In this document: positions 1 through 11,312 of the stretch, one piece after another
Numbering within the stretch: position 1 is the first letter of the stretch
Layout: each line of letters begins with the position of its first letter
Origin: Klebsiella phage 05F01
DNA length: 64,000 bases
Reading direction: 5' to 3' (one strand)
Sequence record: LC483177.1
Made by a program: the position numbers and the translations under genes
Notes under the pieces: generated by a model
Databases searched by the model: none
Seen by the model: the letters and a program-made list of their open reading frames with translations, nothing else
What the model was told of the DNA's origin: nothing

Positions 1-459
1 GGTGATATTACTAAGCTTGGTAGTTTCTCTGAGGCAGACCCACTTGAGTTTGATATGGAAGGTCCTGTTGTATTTAACTTATATACTCAGTATGGTTATT
101 GGGGACGTAATCAAGGTAAGCGTGACCTTAACTATGATGCTATCTATAATGCACTTTCAGCAATGGCAGAACGTATGCATGATTTTGACAAAGGAGACCA
201 AGAACGCCATGTAGTAGGACTACCAAAAATTGGTGCTGGGTACGCGGGTGGAGATTGGGATATCATTGAACTGATTATTAAGAAAACTCTATGTGCGCAA
301 GGTATCGATGTTATTATCTATGTCCTTACAGAAGAAGAGATTCCAAGTAACATGCAGAAATTAATTACCTGTATGCAAGAAACTCTTGGTTGCTCGCGTC
401 ATGAGGCAAAGAGCCTTATCTATCGTCAAGTTTATAGTATGGATGGTGGTAATGTATAA
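1..459 (+). CDS. Macro-domain protein (C-terminal part; gene begins upstream of the window), possibly a PARG/DUF2263-like ADP-ribose hydrolase
   Basis: Frame 1 is open from nt 1. The motif VGLPKIGAGYAGGDWDII resembles the macro-domain glycine-rich loop (GxG[YF]xG) and the bacterial PARG LGAWGCGVFGND segment. The upstream part is consistent with the macro fold. Confidence 0.45.
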   Translation, partial: GDITKLGSFSEADPLEFDMEGPVVFNLYTQYGYWGRNQGKRDLNYDAIYNALSAMAERMHDFDKGDQERHVVGLPKIGAGYAGGDWDIIELIIKKTLCAQGIDVIIYVLTEEEIPSNMQKLITCMQETLGCSRHEAKSLIYRQVYSMDGGNV

Positions 460-484
460 ATTCCCTGCTTCTGTTATCAAGAAT

Positions 485-1261
485 ATGAAGGACAAGTATC
501 CTCTTCATGCCGAAGCTACTATTGAGGTTGCCCTACGGGGCTTCCTTGAGTATATAGAATTAGTGAAATTGTATGGTGAAGTGCCTATGTTCTCTAAATC
601 GGTAGATGATGTTTGGCATTTTATGATCCTTGATACAAAGGAGTATCAGAAATTTTGTGAAGAACGTTTAGGATATTTCTTGCATCATGTTCCTACAGGA
701 GAAGGGGACAAGACCCAGGAAGAAGAAAATAAAGCACTTCGTCTTTTATGGATGAGAGCCTGTAAACTTAGAGGATTTAACCCTTTTTCATATAGTCCTT
801 ATGAGTGCCCTGACTTATTTTATGCAGACAAAGTACTACATTCTACTTCTATTTCAACAATCAACTTGGTTGGGGAAGTGACATATGCTAAAGCATCAGT
901 AGAAAATAGAGAAAAAGGTTTGTTTTCAGTTTTTCGTAAAAAAGATACATCTGATTATACTAAGGCGTTAAAAGATAAGTATGACTCATATGGTAAGGAA
1001 GTGTATGACCCCAATACTGATCTTATGCTGCAAACACTAGTTGTGTCTAGTATTTTTGATAGTTCTGGTAACGTAAAGGAAGATGTAAAGAAAGAAACTA
1101 TAATTTCATCTGATCCTCTTGACATCTATTCCAGTTCATATTACGATACACCTACATCGAACAACCACCACACGCATAGTTGTAGTAGTTGTTCAACTAG
1201 TTCATGTTCAAGTAGCAGTTGCTCTTCAAGTAGTTGTTCGAGTAGTAGTTGCTCTAGTTAA
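485..1261 (+). CDS. Hypothetical protein with a C-terminal tandem (S-S-S-S-C)n Ser/Cys tail
   Basis: ORF in the 386..1261 frame, with the start moved to ATG 485 to avoid overlapping the upstream gene. The C-terminus HHTHSCSSCSTSSCSSSSCSSSSCSSSSCSS is encoded by AGT/AGC-TGT/TGC repeats. Confidence 0.5.
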   Translation: MKDKYPLHAEATIEVALRGFLEYIELVKLYGEVPMFSKSVDDVWHFMILDTKEYQKFCEERLGYFLHHVPTGEGDKTQEEENKALRLLWMRACKLRGFNPFSYSPYECPDLFYADKVLHSTSISTINLVGEVTYAKASVENREKGLFSVFRKKDTSDYTKALKDKYDSYGKEVYDPNTDLMLQTLVVSSIFDSSGNVKEDVKKETIISSDPLDIYSSSYYDTPTSNNHHTHSCSSCSTSSCSSSSCSSSSCSSSSCSS

Positions 1262-1271
1262 GGGAGATATT

Positions 1272-1709
1272 ATGAGTATTGTTACACAAATGAAAGCTGA
1301 TCGCATTGTGGCACGAGTTTCTGATAAAGGTACTTTTGCACTTCTTACTAATATTATTGGTGAGTATGACCTTGCTCGCACTCAAAAAGCTAATTTGAGT
1401 AAGTCAGAAGACGATGTTATGACTAAAGTTGTTAAGGTAGGTATTTCACATGCCAAGGAACAGCTATCTTCATTACAAAAAGTAGGTGCACCACAATCAC
1501 AGATTGAACGTGCCATGCGAGATATTGTAGTTCTTGAAAATTACCTCCCAGAAATGTTAAGTGAAGAGGACTTACGTGATATTGCAGAGAACTCTAAACT
1601 TTTGGGATGGAAAATGCCAGATATGATGAGACATCTTCGAGAGGGGTTTCCTAATTGTTATGATGGTGATCTTGCTGTAAAAATCGCAAAAGAGGTGTTA
1701 GATAAATGA
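1272..1709 (+). CDS. GatB/YqeY domain protein
   Basis: RBS GGGAGA precedes ATG 1272. Motifs LENYLPEMLSEEDLRDI and MPDMMRHLREGFPNCYDGDLAVKIAKEVL match the YqeY/GatB C-terminal domain signature (EYLP..LSEEEL..; GKVMG-like tail). Confidence 0.6.
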   Translation: MSIVTQMKADRIVARVSDKGTFALLTNIIGEYDLARTQKANLSKSEDDVMTKVVKVGISHAKEQLSSLQKVGAPQSQIERAMRDIVVLENYLPEMLSEEDLRDIAENSKLLGWKMPDMMRHLREGFPNCYDGDLAVKIAKEVLDK

Positions 1710-2608
1710 AACTTAAAGACTTACTTGTAAAGTATTCTGATGACGTTGACCATCTACTTGACAAGATTAAAAATATCTGGGATAGTGACGTAGAATTCAT
1801 AACTCAAGACAATAGTGGTGAAGTTTGTTTTTGGAGGAATGTTAATTTATATCATGAATCTAAAGATAAAGGCTGGTTTAGTGAGGAAGGTGATTCTCTG
1901 GTTATATATGAATTCCTCTTTAACGGTGAGGTTGCAGATGATTATGAGACAGCAGTAATTAAAAAAGAGGATTATTTAAACATGGTAAATAAAAAAGATA
2001 TTTATAAACTTGCATTCTATACTAATACAATTACAAAGGATCAGCTGCAAAAACTTTATGATATTTTACATGACAATGGTGTAGATACCTACTTTGAATC
2101 AGCAGAAGCACATGCATCAAGTAGTAATATCTTTAGTAAAGACGATCATACTATTTTTCTATGTGGTGATGTTGGTATTGAAGGGGGTAGACACAATGCT
2201 AATCTGCGAGAGATTGTCTCTTATGAGGAATTTTATTCTTTACTAAAAGAGAAACACCCGTTGGTAAAAGAAAAATCACCATCTCCACGTTTCCATAAGA
2301 AGCGAATCCCTGTTCCTGTTCGCAAGAAGGTGGATGTTGTTGTAAAATATAAAGATGGGTCTAGATATTGCTTTAAAGATGTAGTATACTGGAATGCTAC
2401 CGAAAACTCCTTCTATGTTAAAGAACGTAAAGTGGTTTCAGAAGGCATTGAGTCATCTATTGGTACATACATTGATAAAAAATATATCCAATCAGTTAAT
2501 ATCAAAGAGATTGGTGGATCTGTGAACATTGTCAGTGTAACGGATTTCTGGTATTACGGAGACTCAAGTAAGTTTTTCGGTGAAGGACTCTTCTCAAAAT
2601 CTTACTAA
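1706..2608 (+). CDS. Hypothetical protein
   Basis: 300-aa ORF with an ATGA overlap onto the upstream gene. A terminator follows it. Confidence 0.5.
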   Translation: MKLKDLLVKYSDDVDHLLDKIKNIWDSDVEFITQDNSGEVCFWRNVNLYHESKDKGWFSEEGDSLVIYEFLFNGEVADDYETAVIKKEDYLNMVNKKDIYKLAFYTNTITKDQLQKLYDILHDNGVDTYFESAEAHASSSNIFSKDDHTIFLCGDVGIEGGRHNANLREIVSYEEFYSLLKEKHPLVKEKSPSPRFHKKRIPVPVRKKVDVVVKYKDGSRYCFKDVVYWNATENSFYVKERKVVSEGIESSIGTYIDKKYIQSVNIKEIGGSVNIVSVTDFWYYGDSSKFFGEGLFSKSY

Positions 2609-2611
2609 TAT

Positions 2612-2637
2612 AAGCCCCTTTTGGGGCTTTATTTTTA
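2612..2637 (+). terminator. Rho-independent terminator (AAGCCCCTT-TTGGGGCTT hairpin plus T-run)
   Basis: Perfect GC-rich inverted repeat followed by TTTATTTTTAT. Confidence 0.7.
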
Positions 2638-2647
2638 TCTAAAGTAG

Positions 2648-2677
2648 TTGACATAGTATGTAGGGTAAGATAAAGTG
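2648..2677 (+). promoter_or_regulatory. Sigma70-like early promoter (TTGACA -35, TAAAGT/TAAGAT-like -10)
   Basis: A consensus TTGACA sits immediately downstream of the terminator. An A/T-rich -10 is about 17 bp downstream. The same architecture recurs at 13606 and 27187. Confidence 0.5.
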
Positions 2678-2702
2678 TATTCATGAAAACAAATGAGGAA
2701 AC

Positions 2703-3365
2703 ATGATGACTATCAAACATATCTCTTTCGATGTATGGAATACCTTAATCACTGCCAATAAGGGGTATGCTTTAGAGCGTTCTCAGGTGATATCTTACTT
2801 TGCAGGTATTTCCACTAAAGAAGCAGCAGAAGCTTATGCACTTGTTAAAATGTCACTTGATATGGACGCTTCTCTTGGTATCTGTAATGGTGTAAGTCAT
2901 GCATGGTATGAACTAGGTAAGTTTTTGGGAGTAGATAGGTCAACAGCAGATAAAATCAGAACGCACTGTGAGAAAGCTTTTATTGCAAACCCACCTCACC
3001 TTGATAAATCTCTGGTTGACGAGTTATCTGCTCTTAGTAATAAACATGAGTTGAGTATTAAAAGTAATACCAACTTTATTTCAGGAGAGGTATTATCTGA
3101 GACTTTGGGTTTTTATGAGATGCCGTGGTGGAGCTTCACCCACTTCTCGGATGATTATGGTTGGTGCAAACCAGATCCACTATTCTTCCAATGGACACAG
3201 GTTTGTAGTGATATTCAAGGTATTCGTGCAGAAGAAATTTTACATGTAGGTGATAGTGAAATTTTTGATGGCAAATGTGTTGACATTGGATTTAACTTCT
3301 GTAAAATTGATAACCCTGAACACTTACTGAATAAACTTAAAAATGGAGAACTCATTAATGCGTAA
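2703..3365 (+). CDS. HAD-superfamily phosphatase/hydrolase-like protein
   Basis: RBS GAGGAAA. N-terminal ISFDVWNTLI resembles HAD motif I (DxDxT variant). C-terminal HVGDSEIFDGK resembles HAD motif IV (GDxxxD). Confidence 0.5.
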   Translation: MMTIKHISFDVWNTLITANKGYALERSQVISYFAGISTKEAAEAYALVKMSLDMDASLGICNGVSHAWYELGKFLGVDRSTADKIRTHCEKAFIANPPHLDKSLVDELSALSNKHELSIKSNTNFISGEVLSETLGFYEMPWWSFTHFSDDYGWCKPDPLFFQWTQVCSDIQGIRAEEILHVGDSEIFDGKCVDIGFNFCKIDNPEHLLNKLKNGELINA

Positions 3366-4185
3366 AACAACTCAATTCTTTGCACACAATTTTTCATCTC
3401 TGGCTGATGCAGGTTTTTCTACAGATGACTACTCCAAACTTAAATTTGGTAGTAATCAGTCAGCAAAGCGTTTGGGTTATGAATTAGCAGATAGGTTCTT
3501 TATTACTAAATGTGCTGATAAGTTTAATGAGCGATTCGTGGTAATTCCTTCACCATACAATCATGTTCACAATGCAGCAACAGAAATGTCTAATCATTTT
3601 GTAAACCGATTGAATTATCTATTCTCATGCAATAAGTATAAGAATAGTGTGGAGTGGGATATTATTCACCGTAAAGTCAGTTATATCAATGATTATGGTT
3701 TCTTGAGCAAAGAGGATCGTAAATCACTTATTGATGGGGATAGCTTCTACCTCAATAAAGAATTCTGGAGTGGAAAGACACTTATTTTTATTGATGATGT
3801 CAACATTACTGGTACCCATGAAGATAAGCTAGTAGACATTCTTAACGAAAATGAAGTAGAAAATGACACTTATTTTCTTTACTTTGCAAAATACACAGGG
3901 ACCGAGGCTAATACCGAAGCTGCATTAAACTTCAGCTATATCCATAGTGTAGAGAAGTTTATTGAGATGATTAAGGAAGAACATGATGCTAAATGTCTGG
4001 TTCGACCAATTAAGTATTTGATGTCTCAACCTGAGATAACATTTAAAGTGGCGATTTCACAATTACCAACCAACTATGTTGAACACTTGTTTTTCGGTTG
4101 CTTGGCAGAAGGCTATGACAAGATTGAAAAATACAATGAGAACTTTGAGTTCTTGAAACATTTCTATGAAAGTAATATCATGTAA
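3358..4185 (+). CDS. Type I phosphoribosyltransferase (PRTase) domain protein
   Basis: TLIFIDDVNITGTHEDK matches the PRPP-binding motif of type I PRTases (hydrophobic-DD-x-x-TG-T). The start was moved to ATG 3358, which is preceded by GGAGA. Confidence 0.55.
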   Translation: MRKTTQFFAHNFSSLADAGFSTDDYSKLKFGSNQSAKRLGYELADRFFITKCADKFNERFVVIPSPYNHVHNAATEMSNHFVNRLNYLFSCNKYKNSVEWDIIHRKVSYINDYGFLSKEDRKSLIDGDSFYLNKEFWSGKTLIFIDDVNITGTHEDKLVDILNENEVENDTYFLYFAKYTGTEANTEAALNFSYIHSVEKFIEMIKEEHDAKCLVRPIKYLMSQPEITFKVAISQLPTNYVEHLFFGCLAEGYDKIEKYNENFEFLKHFYESNIM

Positions 4186-4196
4186 GGAGAGATAAA

Positions 4197-4823
4197 ATGA
4201 GTAAATTTAAAGCAGGTGATGTAGTGGTTCGTATCAATTCCACTCTAGGCGAGTCTAATTACAGCTTAGAAGAAGTGCCTATTGGATATGTGGGTGTTGT
4301 TTATGAAGGGTTCACTGATGATGATTATTTTGATTTTGGTGACAAATTCAAATACACGTATGACGATGAGGATTTTGTGTTAGCAATTTCATCTTCACCA
4401 TTATTGAGTAAGTCAGCTTATGGTGAATTCCTTGAATCAGCACAGGCGATTGCTAAAGTGCAAGGGAAAGCTTGTATTGATGAAATTACAGCTACTATTA
4501 GTAAACTTACTGCTATCCACACATATGTTGACGATGTAATTGCTGAGTTGGAAAAAATTAAAGATGAAGTATCTAAGGTTGAAAAATTCACATCAGAGCA
4601 ACTTGAAATTCTTTCAGCTTCTGTAAAAATCACCAAGTTAGTGGGTGAATACTATCGTGATGGTAAAAGTGAACCTCTGTTCTTGAATGGTAGTGGTAAG
4701 ATTCGTCCTCCTATGAACACTCAACTGCCAACAGATACATTTAGTATTGATGAAGTAGAAGGGACATTGGCTGGTATTTCTTTAGATAAAGAAGCTATCC
4801 TCACTTTGCTGCGTAGTTTTTAA
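4197..4823 (+). CDS. Hypothetical protein
   Basis: 208-aa ORF with RBS AAGGAGAG. A terminator follows it. Confidence 0.5.
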   Translation: MSKFKAGDVVVRINSTLGESNYSLEEVPIGYVGVVYEGFTDDDYFDFGDKFKYTYDDEDFVLAISSSPLLSKSAYGEFLESAQAIAKVQGKACIDEITATISKLTAIHTYVDDVIAELEKIKDEVSKVEKFTSEQLEILSASVKITKLVGEYYRDGKSEPLFLNGSGKIRPPMNTQLPTDTFSIDEVEGTLAGISLDKEAILTLLRSF

Positions 4824-4826
4824 ATA

Positions 4827-4851
4827 AAGGGGCGCAAGCCCCTTATTTTTA
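4827..4851 (+). terminator. Rho-independent terminator (AAGGGGCGCAAGCCCCTT plus T-run)
   Basis: GC-rich stem with a GCAA loop and TATTTTT. Confidence 0.7.
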
Positions 4852-4860
4852 GGGTACAAT

Positions 4861-5202
4861 ATGTCAGACTTCAGTTATGTAAAGATGGTTAAAGCAAATA
4901 AAGTCCATAGATGTTGTGAATGTAGGGGTAAAATACATAAATCAGATAAGTATGAAAAATCTTTTATTGTTCAGGATGGTGATGTAAGTGAATATAAAGT
5001 ATGTAAACACTGCTGTGAGTCTCGTGATTGGTTATTAGACCATACAGACTGGAACCATGATATTGATGGAGAAGGGCATTCTTTTTATTACACAATGCTA
5101 CGAGAACATCTGAAGGAGCAAGCCACATATGGTAATAAAGATCTATCTTTTGCTTGCTATAGACATATCGTGAGAATGGACCAAAGGAGAAAAAATGAAT
5201 AA
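4861..5202 (+). CDS. Small Cys-rich zinc-ribbon protein
   Basis: Four CxxC-like pairs (CCECRG, CKHCCE). Confidence 0.45.
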   Translation: MSDFSYVKMVKANKVHRCCECRGKIHKSDKYEKSFIVQDGDVSEYKVCKHCCESRDWLLDHTDWNHDIDGEGHSFYYTMLREHLKEQATYGNKDLSFACYRHIVRMDQRRKNE

Positions 5203-5333
5203 ACTATATTGGATACTCCTTATTTTGTCATACATCATGTTGAGTTATAATACAATTGAGTCATCTATATTTGGTTCAATGATTCTTATATCTGCAAATA
5301 CAATAGTATTTTATGATTGCAAAAGGAGGGAAA

Positions 5334-6614
5334 ATGTCAGAAAGTAAAATGTTGATTATGTTCGATTCTAAGAATAACAACAATAAATATTATGAAGCTA
5401 CATTAGATGATGCAGGAAATATCTCTGTTCGTTATGGGCGTGTTGGTGGTGGTGCTCAAACCACATCATATTCTGGTGGTAAACGTAAATTTGATAGCCT
5501 CATCTCCTCTAAAATTAAGAAAGGGTATAAAGAGGCACAACTTGAAGTGGTGAGCAGTGATACCGGATTAGTTAAACGTGGTAACGTTGTTGATGTTGCA
5601 CTGAAGCAGATTGATACTCAAGATGATATGAGTCGTGCTTTAATTCAGACCATCGCTAAAGCAAATATTCATAACATCACAAGCAGCACTAACATTAAAT
5701 ATGATGAAAAAGATGGCTTGTTTAAGACTCCTCTTGGAGTAGTTAAGAAGGAGGCTGTAGAAGAAGCAACTGCTTTACTGAGTAAGATCGAAGTTCATTT
5801 ACCTGCTTACTTAAATGATGGGAGTATGGAAGCAGAAATCTCTTCCCTAAATGACTCTTATTTTGTGCTTATTCCAAATAAGGTAAATACTACACGAGAT
5901 AAACGTTTTCTTCTCTTTAGTCAGAAAAATATTGATGTTCAAAAATCTGTATGTAAGGCACTATTGGAGACACTAGACCTTATTGAAGATCTTAAAAACA
6001 ATACAAATGAAGAAGAAAAAGTTGAAGTAGAGAAGATCTTTAACTTAGAAATCTCTCATGTAGAAGATGCCCAAACTATTGACCGTATTGTAAAATACTA
6101 CAATGAGAGTAAAAACTCCGATCATGGTGGTAGAATTATGGGGAGTCGTGTTAAAAACATTTACAAGATTAATCTGGGTAATCAGCAACAGCCTTTTGAG
6201 GAAGCTAAAGAGAAGTATGGGAACGTCCATGAGTTCTGGCATGGCACACGTGTAGCTAACCTCCTCTCTATCTTCTGTAAAGGACTTATGATGCCTAAAG
6301 AGAGTCCTGGAGCTAAGGCTGGTGCAATGTTTGGTTATGGAATTTACTTTGCTAACCAAAGTTCAAAAAGTATTAACTATTGTGACGGAATGTACTGGAC
6401 AGGTGGAAGTAACAGTGGTAAAGTTTACATGTTCCTTGCTTCTGTGGCTGTAGGTAAAGCGTATACGCCACCTCATTCTACACAAAGTAATCCACCAAAA
6501 GGTTATGATAGCTATTGGGCTAAAGCAGGTAAGTCTGGTGTTAGAAACGATGAGATCATTGTCTTTGACTTGAGTCAAGTTAGACTTGATTATTTACTCG
6601 AAATTGAAATCTAA
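5334..6614 (+). CDS. PARP-like ADP-ribosyltransferase with an N-terminal WGR domain
   Basis: RBS AGGAGGG precedes ATG 5334. WGR-like KYYEATLDDAGNISVRYGRVGGGAQTTSYSGGKRKF..KKGY. Catalytic-domain motifs are present: FWHGTR (H-G-S/T), GYGIYFANQSSKSINYC (Y-F-A...SKS) and NDEIIVFDLSQVRLDYLLEIEI (catalytic Glu). These correspond to the PARP1 H-Y-E signature. Confidence 0.75.
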   Translation: MSESKMLIMFDSKNNNNKYYEATLDDAGNISVRYGRVGGGAQTTSYSGGKRKFDSLISSKIKKGYKEAQLEVVSSDTGLVKRGNVVDVALKQIDTQDDMSRALIQTIAKANIHNITSSTNIKYDEKDGLFKTPLGVVKKEAVEEATALLSKIEVHLPAYLNDGSMEAEISSLNDSYFVLIPNKVNTTRDKRFLLFSQKNIDVQKSVCKALLETLDLIEDLKNNTNEEEKVEVEKIFNLEISHVEDAQTIDRIVKYYNESKNSDHGGRIMGSRVKNIYKINLGNQQQPFEEAKEKYGNVHEFWHGTRVANLLSIFCKGLMMPKESPGAKAGAMFGYGIYFANQSSKSINYCDGMYWTGGSNSGKVYMFLASVAVGKAYTPPHSTQSNPPKGYDSYWAKAGKSGVRNDEIIVFDLSQVRLDYLLEIEI

Positions 6615-6630
6615 TTAAGGGGAAGGTTTT

Positions 6631-7560
6631 ATGAAGAAGATAGTCTCTGAGAATGGTATGGTGACAAAATACCTCCATAATAATGGAACAGAAACATCCT
6701 TTAAGAAACAGTTATCAGGTAGCTACGTAGATTCACTAGTTAAGCCTGATTTTAAAGATAAGAAAAAGTATAGCTTAGTTTTGTCATGTTCTCATGGATG
6801 TCAGTTATCTTGTTCATTTTGCCACTTAACTCAAAATGGTAAACCTTTCAATAAGATCAACACTGAAGATGTTATTGAAAATATTAAAGAGGTCATTACT
6901 GATCAAATTAATGAAGATCCTTCACTGAAAAGTAAGTATATAAAATTTTGCTGGCTGGGGGAAGGTGAACCATTACTTAATTATGAGATGATTAAGCGTG
7001 CTACTATTGAAGTGCTATTTTGGGTATTAGAAAACAAATATGCTCTTGGTTTGGATGGAGTTGACATTTCAACTTCAATGCCAAGGGTCAAGAAAGAAAC
7101 AATAAAGGATCTTAAATGGTTCAATAAATATCTTTCTGTATTCAATAAAAACCCAAACAACAAAGATAAAACAGCACTAAGATTATTTTATTCTTTACAT
7201 GCAGTAGATAATGACATTAGGTCTAAAATGATGCCAAAAACCATTCATATTAATGATGCTGTGAAATGCATGAAGGAAGTTGGTGATGAATTTGGAATTG
7301 ACACAATTTTCCATTATACATGGATAGAAGGTAAGAATGATTCAGATGATGATGTAGATAATCTTATTAAGTTTTGGAATGAGAACTCTCTACAGAAAAG
7401 TCAACTTCGTGTCTTAAGGTACAATAGTGGGACTAATCTAGATGAAGAAAGTGAAAATCTTGGTAAGATAATTTCAAAATTAAAGAAATTCATTCCAAAT
7501 CTGAAAGTTCAACATTCAGCAGGAAAAGAGGTCCAATCTTCTTGTGGTATGTTCAACTAA
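6631..7560 (+). CDS. Radical SAM enzyme, RlmN/Cfr-like
   Basis: SCSHGCQLSCSFCHLTQNG contains the CxxxCxxC radical-SAM cluster in an RlmN/Cfr-type context (GCxLxCxFCxTxQxG). WLGEGEPLLNYEM matches the RlmN GMGEPLLN motif. Confidence 0.55.
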   Translation: MKKIVSENGMVTKYLHNNGTETSFKKQLSGSYVDSLVKPDFKDKKKYSLVLSCSHGCQLSCSFCHLTQNGKPFNKINTEDVIENIKEVITDQINEDPSLKSKYIKFCWLGEGEPLLNYEMIKRATIEVLFWVLENKYALGLDGVDISTSMPRVKKETIKDLKWFNKYLSVFNKNPNNKDKTALRLFYSLHAVDNDIRSKMMPKTIHINDAVKCMKEVGDEFGIDTIFHYTWIEGKNDSDDDVDNLIKFWNENSLQKSQLRVLRYNSGTNLDEESENLGKIISKLKKFIPNLKVQHSAGKEVQSSCGMFN

Positions 7561-7613
7561 TCTTGATTAAGATCATTATAAAAAGTGATGGAATACGTTA
7601 AAATAATAAGACA

Positions 7614-7640
7614 CAAGCCGGAATTTTCCGGCTTTATTTC
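7614..7640 (+). terminator. Rho-independent terminator (AAGCCGGAATTTTCCGGCTT plus T-run)
   Basis: Perfect inverted repeat followed by TATTTC. Confidence 0.65.
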
Positions 7641-7654
7641 ATTATGGAGGATAA

Positions 7655-9769
7655 GTGAAAAAAGTTATTAAGCGTGATGGCAGAAAAGAAAATTATGATG
7701 AAGGCAAGATTTATCAGGCAGTGTATCAGGCTGCAAATAGTATCAACCTACTATCATTAACTTGTGAAGAAATTGCTAATGATGTTGCAGAGCACATTTC
7801 AAATAAAGTAAAGAATAGAGATGAATTAAAAATAAAAGATATTGAGTCTCTGGTAGAAAATTATCTTATGTCAAAGAATAAGACCAGAGATGTGGCAAGA
7901 AAGTATATTGAATATCGTCATGATAGAGATAGTGCAAGAGAATCTGGCGGAAAACTCTATAATGATTTGTTAGGTTTTCTTGACCAAAGCAATGAAGAGT
8001 TCACGAGAGAGAATGCCAATAAACCAAGTACCCTCGTAAACACCCACAGAGACCTCTTAGCGGGTATTTTAAGTAAACACATAGCAACCACACAGATTCT
8101 CCCTAAAAACCTCTCAGAATGGCATAGAGAAGGTTGGGGACACATTCATGACTTAGATTATTTAGTTAGTCCTCTCACGAATTGTTGTTTGGTTAACTAT
8201 CGTGATATGTTAGAGAATGGATTTAAGATTGGTAATGCTCAAATTGAAAAACCCAAGTCAATTGGTGTAGCTACTACAGTGCTTACTCAAATCATTCAAG
8301 CTGTAGCATCTAGTCAATATGGTGGACAAACTTGTGCTCATATTGATTCAGGATTGAAACAGTATGTAGAACTCTCTTTCAATAAGAATGTAAAACTTAT
8401 TAGGAACTTGTTTGGTGCTGAAATAAAAACAAACGCTATGCAACTCACCGAACAAGATGTATATGATGCAATGCAGACGCTTATCTATCAAGTCAATACC
8501 TTAATGAGTGTAAATGGTCAATCTCCTTTTATTACTATCAGTCTGGGACTAGATACCTCAGAATTTGGTAGAATGATCACCAGGAATTATTTACAGATCC
8601 ATAAAGAAGGGTTAGGGGTTGATAAAGTCACTCCCGTATTCCCTAAAGTTATCTTCTTCCTTGAAGAAGGTGTTAATATGAATCCAGGTGACCCTAATTA
8701 TGATTTAAAACAATTGGCACTGGAGTGTTGTTCTGAACGTATTTATCCAGATTTTATTTCAGTTCCTCGTAATAAGATGGTAACTAATTCTTCTGATGGA
8801 CATGTAACCAGCATGGGATGCAGGTCGTTCCTTTCTTACTATGCTACTGAGCAAGGTGAGAAATATGATGGGAGATTTAATCTTGGTGTTGTCTCTGTCA
8901 ATCTTCCTATGATTGCCAAAGATTGTGTAGTAAATGGGAAGCTCTTCATTGAAGAACTCTATAAGCACATGAGGAACGCCTTTGATGCCCATATGGTGAG
9001 GATTAATCGGTTAAAAGGAACAAAAGCAAAACAAAATCCTGTCTTGTTCATGGAAGGTGCATTATCACGTCTGGATGCAGAAGATACTATTGACAAACTT
9101 TTCTATAAAGGATATGCTTCAGCTAGCTTTGGCTATGTTGGGTTATATGAAGCTGTTCAGATTTTGTATCCTAATACATCTCTAGAAGAGTATCGAGAAA
9201 AAGGATCTTTTATTCTTGATCGAATGCAGAGTATGTCAGATGAATATAAAAATAAGACTAATATTAGCTTCAGTCTTTATGGTACCCCTGCTGAAAGCTT
9301 GTGTTACAAATTTGCATCTCAACTTAATGATAAGTTCCCTGGAACATTAGAAAAAGATTATTTAACAAACTCTTTTCATGTCCCTGTTGATGTAGCTGTT
9401 AACCCATTCACTAAATGGGAAATTGAATCTGGATTTGACATTTTAAGTAGTGGTGGGAATATCGGGTATGTTGAGACACCTAATCTAAAAGGGAATATGA
9501 AAGCACTAGAGACGCTTGTTGACTTTGGTTATAGTAATATACATTACTTTGGTATCAATCAGCCAATTGATAAGTGCTTTAAATGTGGGTTCAGTGGTGA
9601 GTTTAAAGCCACACAAGATGGATTTAGTTGTCCTGAATGTGGTAACTCAGATGAAGAAACTATCAGTGTGATTCGTCGTGTTAGTGGATACTTATCTAGT
9701 CCTAATAGTAGACCTTTTAACAAAGGGAAGATGCAAGAAGTTGTCCAACGTGTGAAACACACTAGTTGA
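7655..9769 (+). CDS. nrdD: Anaerobic ribonucleoside-triphosphate reductase (class III RNR)
   Basis: GTG start after GGAGGA. N-terminal ATP-cone KRDGRKENYDEGKI. Extensive colinear similarity to E. coli NrdD (GNAQIEKPKS, DPNYDLKQLALEC, TSMGCRSF, the C-terminal Zn ribbon CFKCGF..CPECGN and the glycyl-radical motif RRVSGYL). Confidence 0.95.
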   Translation: MKKVIKRDGRKENYDEGKIYQAVYQAANSINLLSLTCEEIANDVAEHISNKVKNRDELKIKDIESLVENYLMSKNKTRDVARKYIEYRHDRDSARESGGKLYNDLLGFLDQSNEEFTRENANKPSTLVNTHRDLLAGILSKHIATTQILPKNLSEWHREGWGHIHDLDYLVSPLTNCCLVNYRDMLENGFKIGNAQIEKPKSIGVATTVLTQIIQAVASSQYGGQTCAHIDSGLKQYVELSFNKNVKLIRNLFGAEIKTNAMQLTEQDVYDAMQTLIYQVNTLMSVNGQSPFITISLGLDTSEFGRMITRNYLQIHKEGLGVDKVTPVFPKVIFFLEEGVNMNPGDPNYDLKQLALECCSERIYPDFISVPRNKMVTNSSDGHVTSMGCRSFLSYYATEQGEKYDGRFNLGVVSVNLPMIAKDCVVNGKLFIEELYKHMRNAFDAHMVRINRLKGTKAKQNPVLFMEGALSRLDAEDTIDKLFYKGYASASFGYVGLYEAVQILYPNTSLEEYREKGSFILDRMQSMSDEYKNKTNISFSLYGTPAESLCYKFASQLNDKFPGTLEKDYLTNSFHVPVDVAVNPFTKWEIESGFDILSSGGNIGYVETPNLKGNMKALETLVDFGYSNIHYFGINQPIDKCFKCGFSGEFKATQDGFSCPECGNSDEETISVIRRVSGYLSSPNSRPFNKGKMQEVVQRVKHTS

Positions 9770-9998: not shown

Positions 9999-10116
9999 GG
10001 TAGTGATAGAAAGACGTGGGGACAAATGGTATTCTCTTGGTAAATACTTTAAGCGCTTTGGTCAGTGTAAGAAATATGTCTGGTCAAAGGGATTTAATGG
10101 CGTTAGATTAGATTAA
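9982..10116 (+). CDS. Hypothetical small protein (44 aa), not in the ORF track
   Basis: ATG preceded by a strong RBS AGGAGGTAAGA. Basic peptide MGERVKVVIERRGDKWYSLGKYFKRFGQCKKYVWSKGFNGVRLD. Confidence 0.3.
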   Translation: MGERVKVVIERRGDKWYSLGKYFKRFGQCKKYVWSKGFNGVRLD

Positions 10117-10126
10117 GGAGAGAATA

Positions 10127-10672
10127 ATGAATTATAACTTTAAAGGTAGTCCAGGTAATTGGTTTTATGGGGAGTATGGTGGTGTTGACGGACAGGGCTT
10201 CTTTGTTGGCTCTAATCAGTATTACGACGGCTGCAATTATGTTGCTCGTATAAATGGAACAACAGAAAAACATAAAGCTGATGCAAAACTCATTTCTAAA
10301 TGTCCAGAATTACTTAAAACAATCATTGGAGATAATCACACTCTTCCAGAATTACTAGATTGGGTTGCTGACAGGTTGGTATATGTCTATCATGAGCACC
10401 ATAATGTAGATTTTGTTCAGGAGTTACGGAATAGATCGAAGAAACTTCAAAGTATTCTTGATGAAGTTGTTCATGAAGAGTTGCCAAAGATACTTTCAAG
10501 AGATGAAAAGATAGAGTTCATTAAAATTAGGTACCTCAATAACGAGAATGGTGTTTATTTTTGTAATCAAGATGGTGTCGCTACATATTTTTCACATATG
10601 CATAATATTGTTTTCTCAAGAAAAGAGTGGGAAGATGAAATTTGGCCTAAGTTGCAGCAGGAGGTAAAATGA
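10127..10672 (+). CDS. Hypothetical protein
   Basis: 181-aa ORF with RBS AGGAGAG. Confidence 0.5.
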   Translation: MNYNFKGSPGNWFYGEYGGVDGQGFFVGSNQYYDGCNYVARINGTTEKHKADAKLISKCPELLKTIIGDNHTLPELLDWVADRLVYVYHEHHNVDFVQELRNRSKKLQSILDEVVHEELPKILSRDEKIEFIKIRYLNNENGVYFCNQDGVATYFSHMHNIVFSRKEWEDEIWPKLQQEVK

Positions 10673-10827
10673 ATGCATACAAAGAGATCATTGAGGCATT
10701 AGAGTGGTATTTAGGCGATGGCGTAAACCCACTGAGTTCAGACTGTATATATGAAATTATTAATCAAGAGCACGACCCTATTGAAACAATAGCAAAAGCT
10801 CTGGATTATTATAGGGAAAATAAATGA
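10669..10827 (+). CDS. Hypothetical small protein (52 aa), not in the ORF track
   Basis: It is translationally coupled by ATGA overlaps at both ends, with the upstream ORF and with nrdG. It fills an otherwise non-coding 150-nt gap. Confidence 0.35.
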   Translation: MNAYKEIIEALEWYLGDGVNPLSSDCIYEIINQEHDPIETIAKALDYYRENK

Positions 10828-11312
10828 ACTACGCAGGGTACATTTTTGGTGACCTTGTGAATGGAGAGGGAGCTAGATGTTCCCTTTTTGTTTCTGGTTG
10901 CTCAAGAGGTTGTGAAGGGTGCTTTAACAAAGAGACTTGGGATTATTCCTATGGTTCTGTGTATACAAAAGAAACACAAGAAATGATTCTAAGAGATTTA
11001 TCAAAAGGTTACATCTCAGGACTGAGTATCTTAGGAGGTAATCCTTTAGAGAGAAAGAATTTTGATGTAGTGTACAACTTATGTGAAGAAGTTAAAAACA
11101 CATTTACAAACAAAGACATATGGATTTGGTGTGGTCAAACTTTTGAAGAAATCTCAAATGATAGTAAATTTAGTAAGATATTGCCCTTGACAGATGTTTT
11201 GGTGGATGGTAAATTTATCCCATCGAAAGCGAATCCTTCCTTGAAGTGGAGAGGTTCAAGTAATCAGAACATTTGGGTTAAGAGGGATGAAGAGTGGATT
11301 ATTCAACATTAA
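10824..11312 (+). CDS. nrdG: Anaerobic ribonucleotide reductase activating protein (radical SAM)
   Basis: Near-colinear with E. coli NrdG: DIVNGEGARCSLFVSGCSRGCEGCFNK, DIWIWCGQTFEE, VLVDGKFIPSKANPSLKWRGSSNQ. Confidence 0.95.
   Translation: MNYAGYIFGDLVNGEGARCSLFVSGCSRGCEGCFNKETWDYSYGSVYTKETQEMILRDLSKGYISGLSILGGNPLERKNFDVVYNLCEEVKNTFTNKDIWIWCGQTFEEISNDSKFSKILPLTDVLVDGKFIPSKANPSLKWRGSSNQNIWVKRDEEWIIQH

Follow-up and report, generated by a model that had tools for sequence, protein, structure and literature searches.

Two macrodomain proteins whose function has been described stand closest to the phage gene analyzed here, Tk.4 of phage T4 and SCO6735. In a recent preprint, tk.4 alone among the T4 genes was depleted on a host with DarTG2, and its clean knockout made T4 sensitive to DarTG2; the gene was named adfM, for anti-DarT factor Macrodomain, and the evidence is a genetic phenotype without biochemistry (bioRxiv 10.1101/2025.11.20.689424). 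T4 lacking adfA and adfN stays resistant to DarTG2 (PMC11825919). PhiKZ gp104, which is also called AdfM, strips the ADP-ribose added by DarT2 off DNA in vitro (PMC13309987). SCO6735 removes DarT-made ADP-ribose from thymidine in single-stranded DNA faster than DarG or TARG1 does; its Q85A variant is inactive and N27S nearly so, while Val25 has been proposed to act through its backbone oxygen (PMC9411070). SCO6735 also hydrolyzes Glu-linked mono-ADP-ribose on PARP1 E988Q (PMC5087735) and ADP-ribosyl-uracil in RNA (PMC13036486). PARP genes have been noted in jumbo phages, without a macro partner. In the literature that we searched, we found nothing specific on a phage macro-PARP operon or on Klebsiella phages 05F01, FBKp34, and KP13-16.

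Here, we analyzed a 64,000-nucleotide stretch of Klebsiella phage 05F01 (LC483177.1), referred to below as the window, which opens inside a macrodomain gene (Table 1). Frame 1 contains no stop codon before the TAA at positions 457 to 459, and the next gene begins within this end, with an overlap of 8 nt. The macro gene runs across the start of the window, and its 5' part lies outside. Using the protein encoded by the neighboring gene as the query, we recovered a Logan contig (DRR175056_41, L003) that matches window positions 1 to 6137 at 100% identity, with no mismatch, and reaches 1,880 nt 5' of the window start. The upstream sequence needed to complete the reading frame was thus obtained: the missing first 55 codons are found at L003:1716-1880, and the complete ORF (L003:1716-2339) encodes 207 aa, with the N-terminus MLKYKVGDLIEAARNGEVNYIGHGCNCYTTMGSGIAPLIKAAFP. 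Sequence databases list the identical protein, in a 147-kb contig, under the name “putative phosphatase [Klebsiella phage 05F01].” The nearest annotated relatives belong to the Stephanstirmvirinae, namely, Citrobacter phage Tr1 and Klebsiella phages FBKp34 and KP13-16.

Table 1. Coordinates of the features discussed in the text, in the window or in the other sequence named
Feature	Sequence	Coordinates	Strand	Remarks
Macrodomain gene, C-terminal part	Window	1..459	+	152 codons (residues 56-207) plus stop
Gln85 codon (CAG)	Window	88..90	+	Position of TARG1 Lys84, DarG Lys80, and SCO6735 Gln85
Second phosphate-binding loop, VGLPKIGAGYAGGDWDII	Window	214..267	+	Fragment residues 72-89; segment quoted by the first-pass annotation
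C-terminal tail, ca. residues 170-207	Window	343..456	+	Two predicted helices
Gene following the macro gene	Window	452..1261	+	UCP032817-like (Pfam)
Terminator-like hairpin	Window	2612..2629	+	In the 94-nt gap before the HAD gene
Promoter-like site	Window	2648-2676		After the hairpin at 2612..2629
HAD-type phosphatase gene	Window	2703..3365	+	PHROG 14393, 1e-82; NCBIfam HAD family IA, 9e-9
PRTase_3 (ComF-like phosphoribosyltransferase) gene	Window	3343..4185	+	PF15610, 4.1e-44
Gene with conserved C-terminal part	Window	4197..4823	+	208 aa
Terminator-like hairpin	Window	4827..4844	+	In the 37-nt gap before ORF 4861-5202
PARP gene	Window	5334..6614	+	WGR, helical regulatory, and catalytic domains; reading frame open from 5313, MSESK (5334) is the start in homologs
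Radical SAM gene	Window	6631..7560	+	309 aa, between PARP and nrdD
Terminator-like hairpin, third	Window	7615-7634
Example of an adjacent macro-PARP pair	L054	9533-9970 (macro), 10001-11197 (PARP)
Macro genes of the second PARP cluster	L018, L020-L023, L027, L029, L035, L037	e.g., L029:13583-14062

The full-length protein passed the Pfam Macro family (PF01661) marginally, with 22.7 bits against a gathering cutoff of 22 (E value, 9.8e-5), and this was its only Pfam family at an E value of ≤1. The fragment inside the window had no Pfam match at that threshold, the N-terminal 55 residues being needed. This fragment alone matched PHROG 335 (“phosphatase”) at 1.3e-28 as well as two macrodomains of known structure, BT1257 and SCO6735, with E values near 1e-7, so the resemblance was more than chance. 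In searches of PDB sequences, the complete protein matched BT1257 (2e-7), SCO6735 (5e-7), and DarG (3.5e-4), and weak phmmer matches to ALC1/CHD1L were also found. DarG was the sole match in PADLOC (1.7e-10) and antitoxin_DarG the sole match in NCBIfam (1.1e-8), in both cases over the macro part only. Thus, the DarG antitoxin model NF048014 reached 34.8 bits of the 250 required and aligned along positions 2 to 161 of its 338, and no second domain homologous to DarG was present in the macro protein.

An AlphaFold model computed with 73 homologs (pLDDT, 92; pTM, 0.84) displayed a three-layer alpha/beta/alpha macro fold with two glycine-rich phosphate-binding loops, MGSGIA and IGAGYAGG. The best Foldseek match was TARG1 (8e-11; TM score, 0.86), followed by BT1257, DarG, Poa1p, and SCO6735, these proteins filling ranks 1 to 20; there were 150 PDB matches at an E value of ≤0.001, and the best 50 of these 150 were almost all macrodomains. 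The protein is therefore a macrodomain of the ALC1/TARG1/DarG class, and its core of 165 of the 207 aa has the size of a minimal macrodomain. The first-pass annotation had taken the truncated first ORF for a macrodomain gene, which the full-length protein, its Pfam family, and its fold bear out.

The same annotation had likened the glycine-rich segment to both the diphosphate-binding loop of macrodomains and a segment of bacterial PARG, and it had placed this segment at the end of the ORF. The macrodomain half of this comparison held: VGLPKIGAGYAGGDWDII is the second loop for phosphate binding in the macro fold, its counterpart being PRIGCGLDRLQW in TARG1 and, by alignment, PRIGCGLAGG(K/T)W in BT1257 and SCO6735. 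It is followed by 63 more residues and hence does not end the ORF. The PARG half did not hold in the very checks that the annotation had suggested. A bacterial-type (DUF2263-like) PARG that degrades poly(ADP-ribose) chains finds its one argument in the visual likeness of the loop to the PARG segment, and we rejected it on the grounds that the GGG-X6-8-QEE signature is missing from the complete 207-aa sequence. Against it are also the lack of a Pfam match to PARG or DUF2263 at an E value of ≤1 for the full-length protein, the absence of any PARG from the best 50 of the 150 structural matches, and the minimal macrodomain size of the protein. The probability of this reading is close to negligible.

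HMMER alignments to SCO6735 and DarG were used to place the active-site residues. Five residues (N26, G34, Q85, G139, and W141) were invariant in the 73 homologs, and N26 aligned with SCO6735 N27. The protein has both marks of the Gln-type (SCO6735-like) subclass, a Gln at the position of TARG1 Lys84 and DarG Lys80 and a conserved Asn. Val or Ile was not found at the position of SCO6735 Val25, which is taken by Gly24 (HGCNC versus HVCND). The conservation of Q85 and N26, together with the activity data for SCO6735, led us to assign the window protein to the Gln-type ALC1-class hydrolases.

Beyond the core, the two helices of the C-terminal tail (residues 171 to 184 and 188 to 201) were modeled by AlphaFold with moderate confidence (pLDDT, 72 to 86). 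The last ca. 30 residues of this tail are missing from all close homologs, which stop at ...YVLDEAEIPENATVIK. The macro proteins of the PARP-bearing phages KP13-16 (L002:6907-7422) and FBKp34 (L005:9073-9588) are unusually divergent, with NARKRGIA instead of TMGSGIA in the first phosphate loop and QQCNC in place of HGCNC; the KP13-16 protein has Arg at the otherwise invariant Gln85.

Tk.4 of T4 (NC_000866, 60922-61389) and the window protein share 37.6% identity over 149 residues (blastp E value, 4e-27), a level at which their substrates may still differ. Tk.4 scored 130 bits (3.3e-39) with the family HMM of the window protein, and the homology extends over the whole domain. A crude neighbor-joining tree, in which the human TARG1 sequence was included as a marker only, grouped the window protein with the homologs of Tr1, FBKp34, and other phages and with T4 Tk.4, next to SCO6735 and apart from DarG/PhiKZ gp104, TARG1, and the PARP-linked macros described below.

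On this basis, we propose, with a probability of about 0.6, that the window gene encodes a stand-alone ADP-ribosylhydrolase of the T4 Tk.4/AdfM and SCO6735 kind, whose role would most likely be counter-defense against DarT2-type DNA ADP-ribosylation. We infer the substrate and the phenotype as follows. A host DarT2-type toxin would ADP-ribosylate thymidines in single-stranded phage DNA; the macro enzyme would bind the ADP-ribose in its cleft, with Gln85 and Asn26 positioning the distal ribose, and would hydrolyze the base-ribose bond, after which replication could resume. Removal of Glu/Asp-linked ADP-ribose added by the phage's own PARP would be a chemically plausible second role because SCO6735 has both activities, and it is not required to explain the gene. 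In practical terms, this Klebsiella phage is predicted to resist DarTG2-type defense, which is relevant to the choice of therapeutic phages.

The database name “putative phosphatase” has its source in a different reading, according to which the protein would clean up metabolites as an ADP-ribose-1''-phosphate phosphatase or O-acyl-ADP-ribose deacylase (Poa1p/TARG1-like), for example, after RNA repair or sirtuin reactions. Poa1p structures were indeed among the Foldseek matches (4e-9), T4 Tk.4 is annotated as “phosphatase; A1pp motif,” homologs are labeled O-acetyl-ADP-ribose deacetylase by JGI, and a gene with an RNA-repair-type nucleotidyltransferase domain lies a few kilobases upstream in FBKp34. 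However, these names are automatic annotations and not experiments. Moreover, no Tpt1/KptA, RNA ligase, or sirtuin family was detected with Pfam in the first ten genes of the window, or in the 25 families listed out of the 35 matched in a survey of the 65 ORFs between 9.8 kb and the window end, and of the characterized relatives, SCO6735 has ADP-ribosylated nucleic acid as a substrate and Tk.4 protects against this modification. Metabolite clean-up is accordingly very improbable as the function of the gene, and the identification of a macrodomain ADP-ribosylhydrolase corrects the database label.

A PARP gene had been reported ca. 5 kb downstream by the first-pass annotation, and it is present on the same strand, at a distance of 4.85 kb, with an intact H-Y-E triad. 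Pfam recognized the PARP catalytic domain (4e-26), WGR (1.1e-7), and PARP_reg (4.6e-6), and the protein matched human PARP1 with an E value of 2.7e-21. The triad residues H310, Y345, and E414, which align to WHGSR, GIYFA, and YNEYIVYD of PARP1, were invariant in five phage PARPs. Judging from these residues, the phage PARP looks active.

The co-occurrence of the two genes had been taken as a potential writer/eraser pair, in which the macro protein would mainly reverse Glu/Asp-linked mono-/poly-ADP-ribosylation of proteins carried out by the phage's own PARP, so that the phage would have an ADP-ribosylation cycle contained in itself. The intact triad and the PARP1-like helical and catalytic region of the PARP are consistent with this idea, and so is the activity of SCO6735, a member of the same Gln-type branch, on PARP1 E988Q. 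Moreover, each of the three PARP-bearing relatives (05F01, FBKp34, and KP13-16) has the macro gene on the strand of PARP, 2.4 to 4.9 kb upstream of it, and in FBKp34, a single annotated promoter and a single annotated terminator flank the two genes. Furthermore, the 64-kb window contains no ALC1-class macro besides this gene: AdfM-type and TARG1-type HMMs revealed no second, cryptic macro either in the window or near PARP in the relatives, and a K-type macro HMM found nothing else in the window.

Against the pair stands, first of all, the distribution of the two genes. Homologs of the macro protein were detected by tblastn in 1,590 of 50,697 phage records and PARP homologs in 9, so nearly all of these macro-bearing phages are devoid of PARP and the macro gene does not depend on it. 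Its occurrence in PARP-less members of the subfamily indicates that it predates the acquisition of PARP; in one of them, Tr1, it is found two small genes downstream of a HAD-PRTase pair. Similarity levels pointed in the same direction. The window macro shares 59% identity with its homolog in the PARP-less Tr1 and only 45% with the one in FBKp34, in contrast to 80% identity between the PARPs of 05F01 and FBKp34, and this discordance implies that the two genes were not inherited as a unit and have different histories. When window positions 1 to 8000 were compared with phages by megablast, the PARP gene was the sole match (KP13-16, 74.7%).

Transcription signals and the enzyme itself also argue against a dedicated pair. 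Eight genes and two strong terminator-like hairpins separate macro from PARP; the total number of terminator-like sites in the region was not above the shuffle expectation, and it is their placement in the intergenic gaps that is informative. With Q85, GAGYAGG, 4.85 kb to PARP, and two hairpins in between, the locus does not conform to a TARG1-type pairing. The enzyme has neither the Lys/Asp dyad of TARG1 nor the PARG machinery for the ribose-ribose bonds of poly(ADP-ribose), and it clusters with T4 Tk.4 rather than with PARP-linked macros. Taken together, distribution, phylogeny, and transcription signals give no specific support for a PARP-eraser role in 05F01, where the macro gene is an ordinary representative of a family widespread among phages, whose role in T4 was assigned recently.

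In order to put this locus into perspective, we collected 80 loci with a WGR-PARP homolog from viral contigs (IMG/VR) with 10-kb flanks, 1.42 Mb in all, using an alignment of five phage PARPs as the query; the alignment was needed, as a single PARP protein retrieved no related viral loci. The HMM of the window's macro family gave 55 matches in these loci at an E value of ≤1 and 51 at ≤1e-6, where ca. 1 was expected from the overall density of the macro family in phage genomes. A member of the macro-like cluster, defined by blastp, was found within 10 kb of PARP in 52 of the 80 loci, a number that is an upper bound because a few cluster members (e.g., L054:16857-17393) are not macrodomain-like. 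In 42 of the 80, a macro gene of ca. 145 aa ended at most 150 nt upstream of PARP on the same strand. These PARP-adjacent macros are of the TARG1 type: the macro protein of the L054 example matched human TARG1 at 1.2e-27 and retained the equivalents of Lys84 and Asp125. The 42 loci look like a conserved viral TARG1-PARP operon.

A second PARP cluster, with 10 loci, had a macro gene 1 to 3 kb downstream of PARP in 9 or 10 of them, and according to their motifs (HQCNC and GQY), 8 of these macros were Gln-type (SCO6735-like) and 1 was unclassified. This is a PARP-macro association independent of the TARG1-PARP operon, with another subtype and another arrangement. Single-linkage clustering at 50% identity yielded 13 PARP clusters, and macro linkage was confined to these 2. 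The other 11 (22 loci), which include those nearest to the window PARP (L008-L017 and L047), had no macro within 10 kb, nor was there one within 20 kb of the PARPs of XacN1 and RAS14, a further point against pairing in 05F01. The neighbors of the PARPs nearest to the window encode an ATP-dependent DNA ligase, an AAA_33 kinase, and an AbrB/MazE-like protein. Therefore, PARP-macro coupling is real and recurrent in some viral lineages, with other macro subtypes, and was not seen in those nearest the window. The frequent coupling of TARG1-class macro genes to viral PARP genes supports the idea of a reversible ADP-ribosylation cycle in some phages.

The linkage in two other PARP lineages (42 of 80 loci and 9 or 10 of 10) makes a PARP-related role for the window macro more credible, so part of the original suggestion gains from it. 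Given the prevalence of the macro gene without PARP, its grouping, the hairpins, and the discordant similarities, a dedicated writer/eraser pair is nonetheless doubtful, and reversal of the phage's own PARP is unlikely to be the main function of the gene. Somewhat apart from this is co-option, in which a resident AdfM-type macro would have been recruited as the eraser for the phage's own PARP in the 05F01/FBKp34/KP13-16 lineage. We hold it to be quite unlikely, but if true, a complete viral ADP-ribosylation cycle would have been built from a counter-defense enzyme, and it would be the third independent PARP-macro association, beside the TARG1-PARP operon and the PARP with a Gln-type macro. The 05F01 lineage would lend itself well to asking if an anti-DarT macrodomain is able to work for a phage PARP as well.

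The genes between macro and PARP include the HAD phosphatase and the PRTase, for which a connection to ADP-ribose/NAD metabolism had been suggested. Ter-type genes are found at ca. 10 to 20 kb of the window (TerD, TerC, a TerF-type vWA protein, TelA, and DUF475), and, according to Iyer and colleagues, PRTases and HAD phosphoesterases form a predicted arm of the Ter system for the synthesis of signals, with some phages having the whole system (PMC7824862). A Ter-system biosynthetic module would fit the HAD and PRTase_3 genes and explain them better than NAD/ADP-ribose recycling does, and the suggested metabolic connection finds no support. The alternative of an Adprp/Namat-like PRTase fared no better: the protein matched PRTase_3 only, with no PRPP-synthetase-like or Nampt-like domain and no match in NCBIfam. 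With that sole Pfam match and Ter-system genes nearby, NAD reconstitution of the NARP1 kind was rejected for the PRTase, and NARP3 was discarded as a comparison, being an unrelated PnuC/NadR pair (PMC13464706). As an observation in its own right, the Ter cluster together with the HAD/PRTase_3 genes resembles a complete Ter system with a predicted nucleoside-signal biosynthesis arm.

Other neighboring genes deserve a brief description. The gene that follows the macro gene encodes a protein with a Ser/Cys repeat at its end (HSCSSCSTSSCSSSSCSSSSCSSSSCSS); neither Tr1 nor KP13-16 has a detectable homolog of it. Upstream of the PARP gene, neither the 208-aa ORF nor ORF 4861-5202 belongs to a Pfam family. 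The C-terminal ca. 140 residues of the 208-aa protein are kept directly upstream of PARP in KP13-16 (L002:9528-9965, 38% identity) and FBKp34 (L005:11535-11972, by position), and it is the only gene conserved immediately upstream of PARP in these two phages. The best matches of the radical SAM protein are RlmN/Cfr-type RNA methyltransferases (2.5e-17, far below the family cutoffs) rather than the NrdG activase, and its gene is missing from the equivalent position in KP13-16 and FBKp34.

Compared with the known systems, human TARG1/OARD1 is of the ALC1-like class and is the top structural match to the window protein, and TARG1-type macros and the window macro alike occur in genomes with a PARP gene, but TARG1-type enzymes have the Lys84/Asp125 dyad, and the window protein has Gln and Ala/Gly (GAGYAGG) at those positions. 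DarG (PDB 5m31 and 5m3i) and PhiKZ gp104 belong to the same macrodomain class, but both are Lys-type (FPTK) where the window protein has Gln. PhiKZ gp104 is DarG-like and distant from the window protein (E value, 0.004), and the window protein is without the C-terminal DarT-binding domain of DarG. SCO6735 and BT1257 (PDB 5e3b and 2fg1) have in common with it the fold, the Asn and Gln residues, the GxG loops, and a long basic mobile loop, although identity is only about 26 to 29%; SCO6735 is a cellular protein without a known partner toxin. T4 Tk.4 resembles the window protein in being a stand-alone phage macrodomain of like core size, and both carry the motifs HGCNC..TMGSG, FNLYTQ (with Gln at the catalytic position), and P(K/R)IGAG..G.WDII. 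The window protein differs from Tk.4 in its longer, SCO6735-like loop after Gln85 (YGYWGRNQGKRD), in the ca. 30-residue C-terminal helical tail that is unique to it, and in its genome, that of a Stephanstirmvirinae-type Klebsiella phage with a PARP, which T4 does not have.
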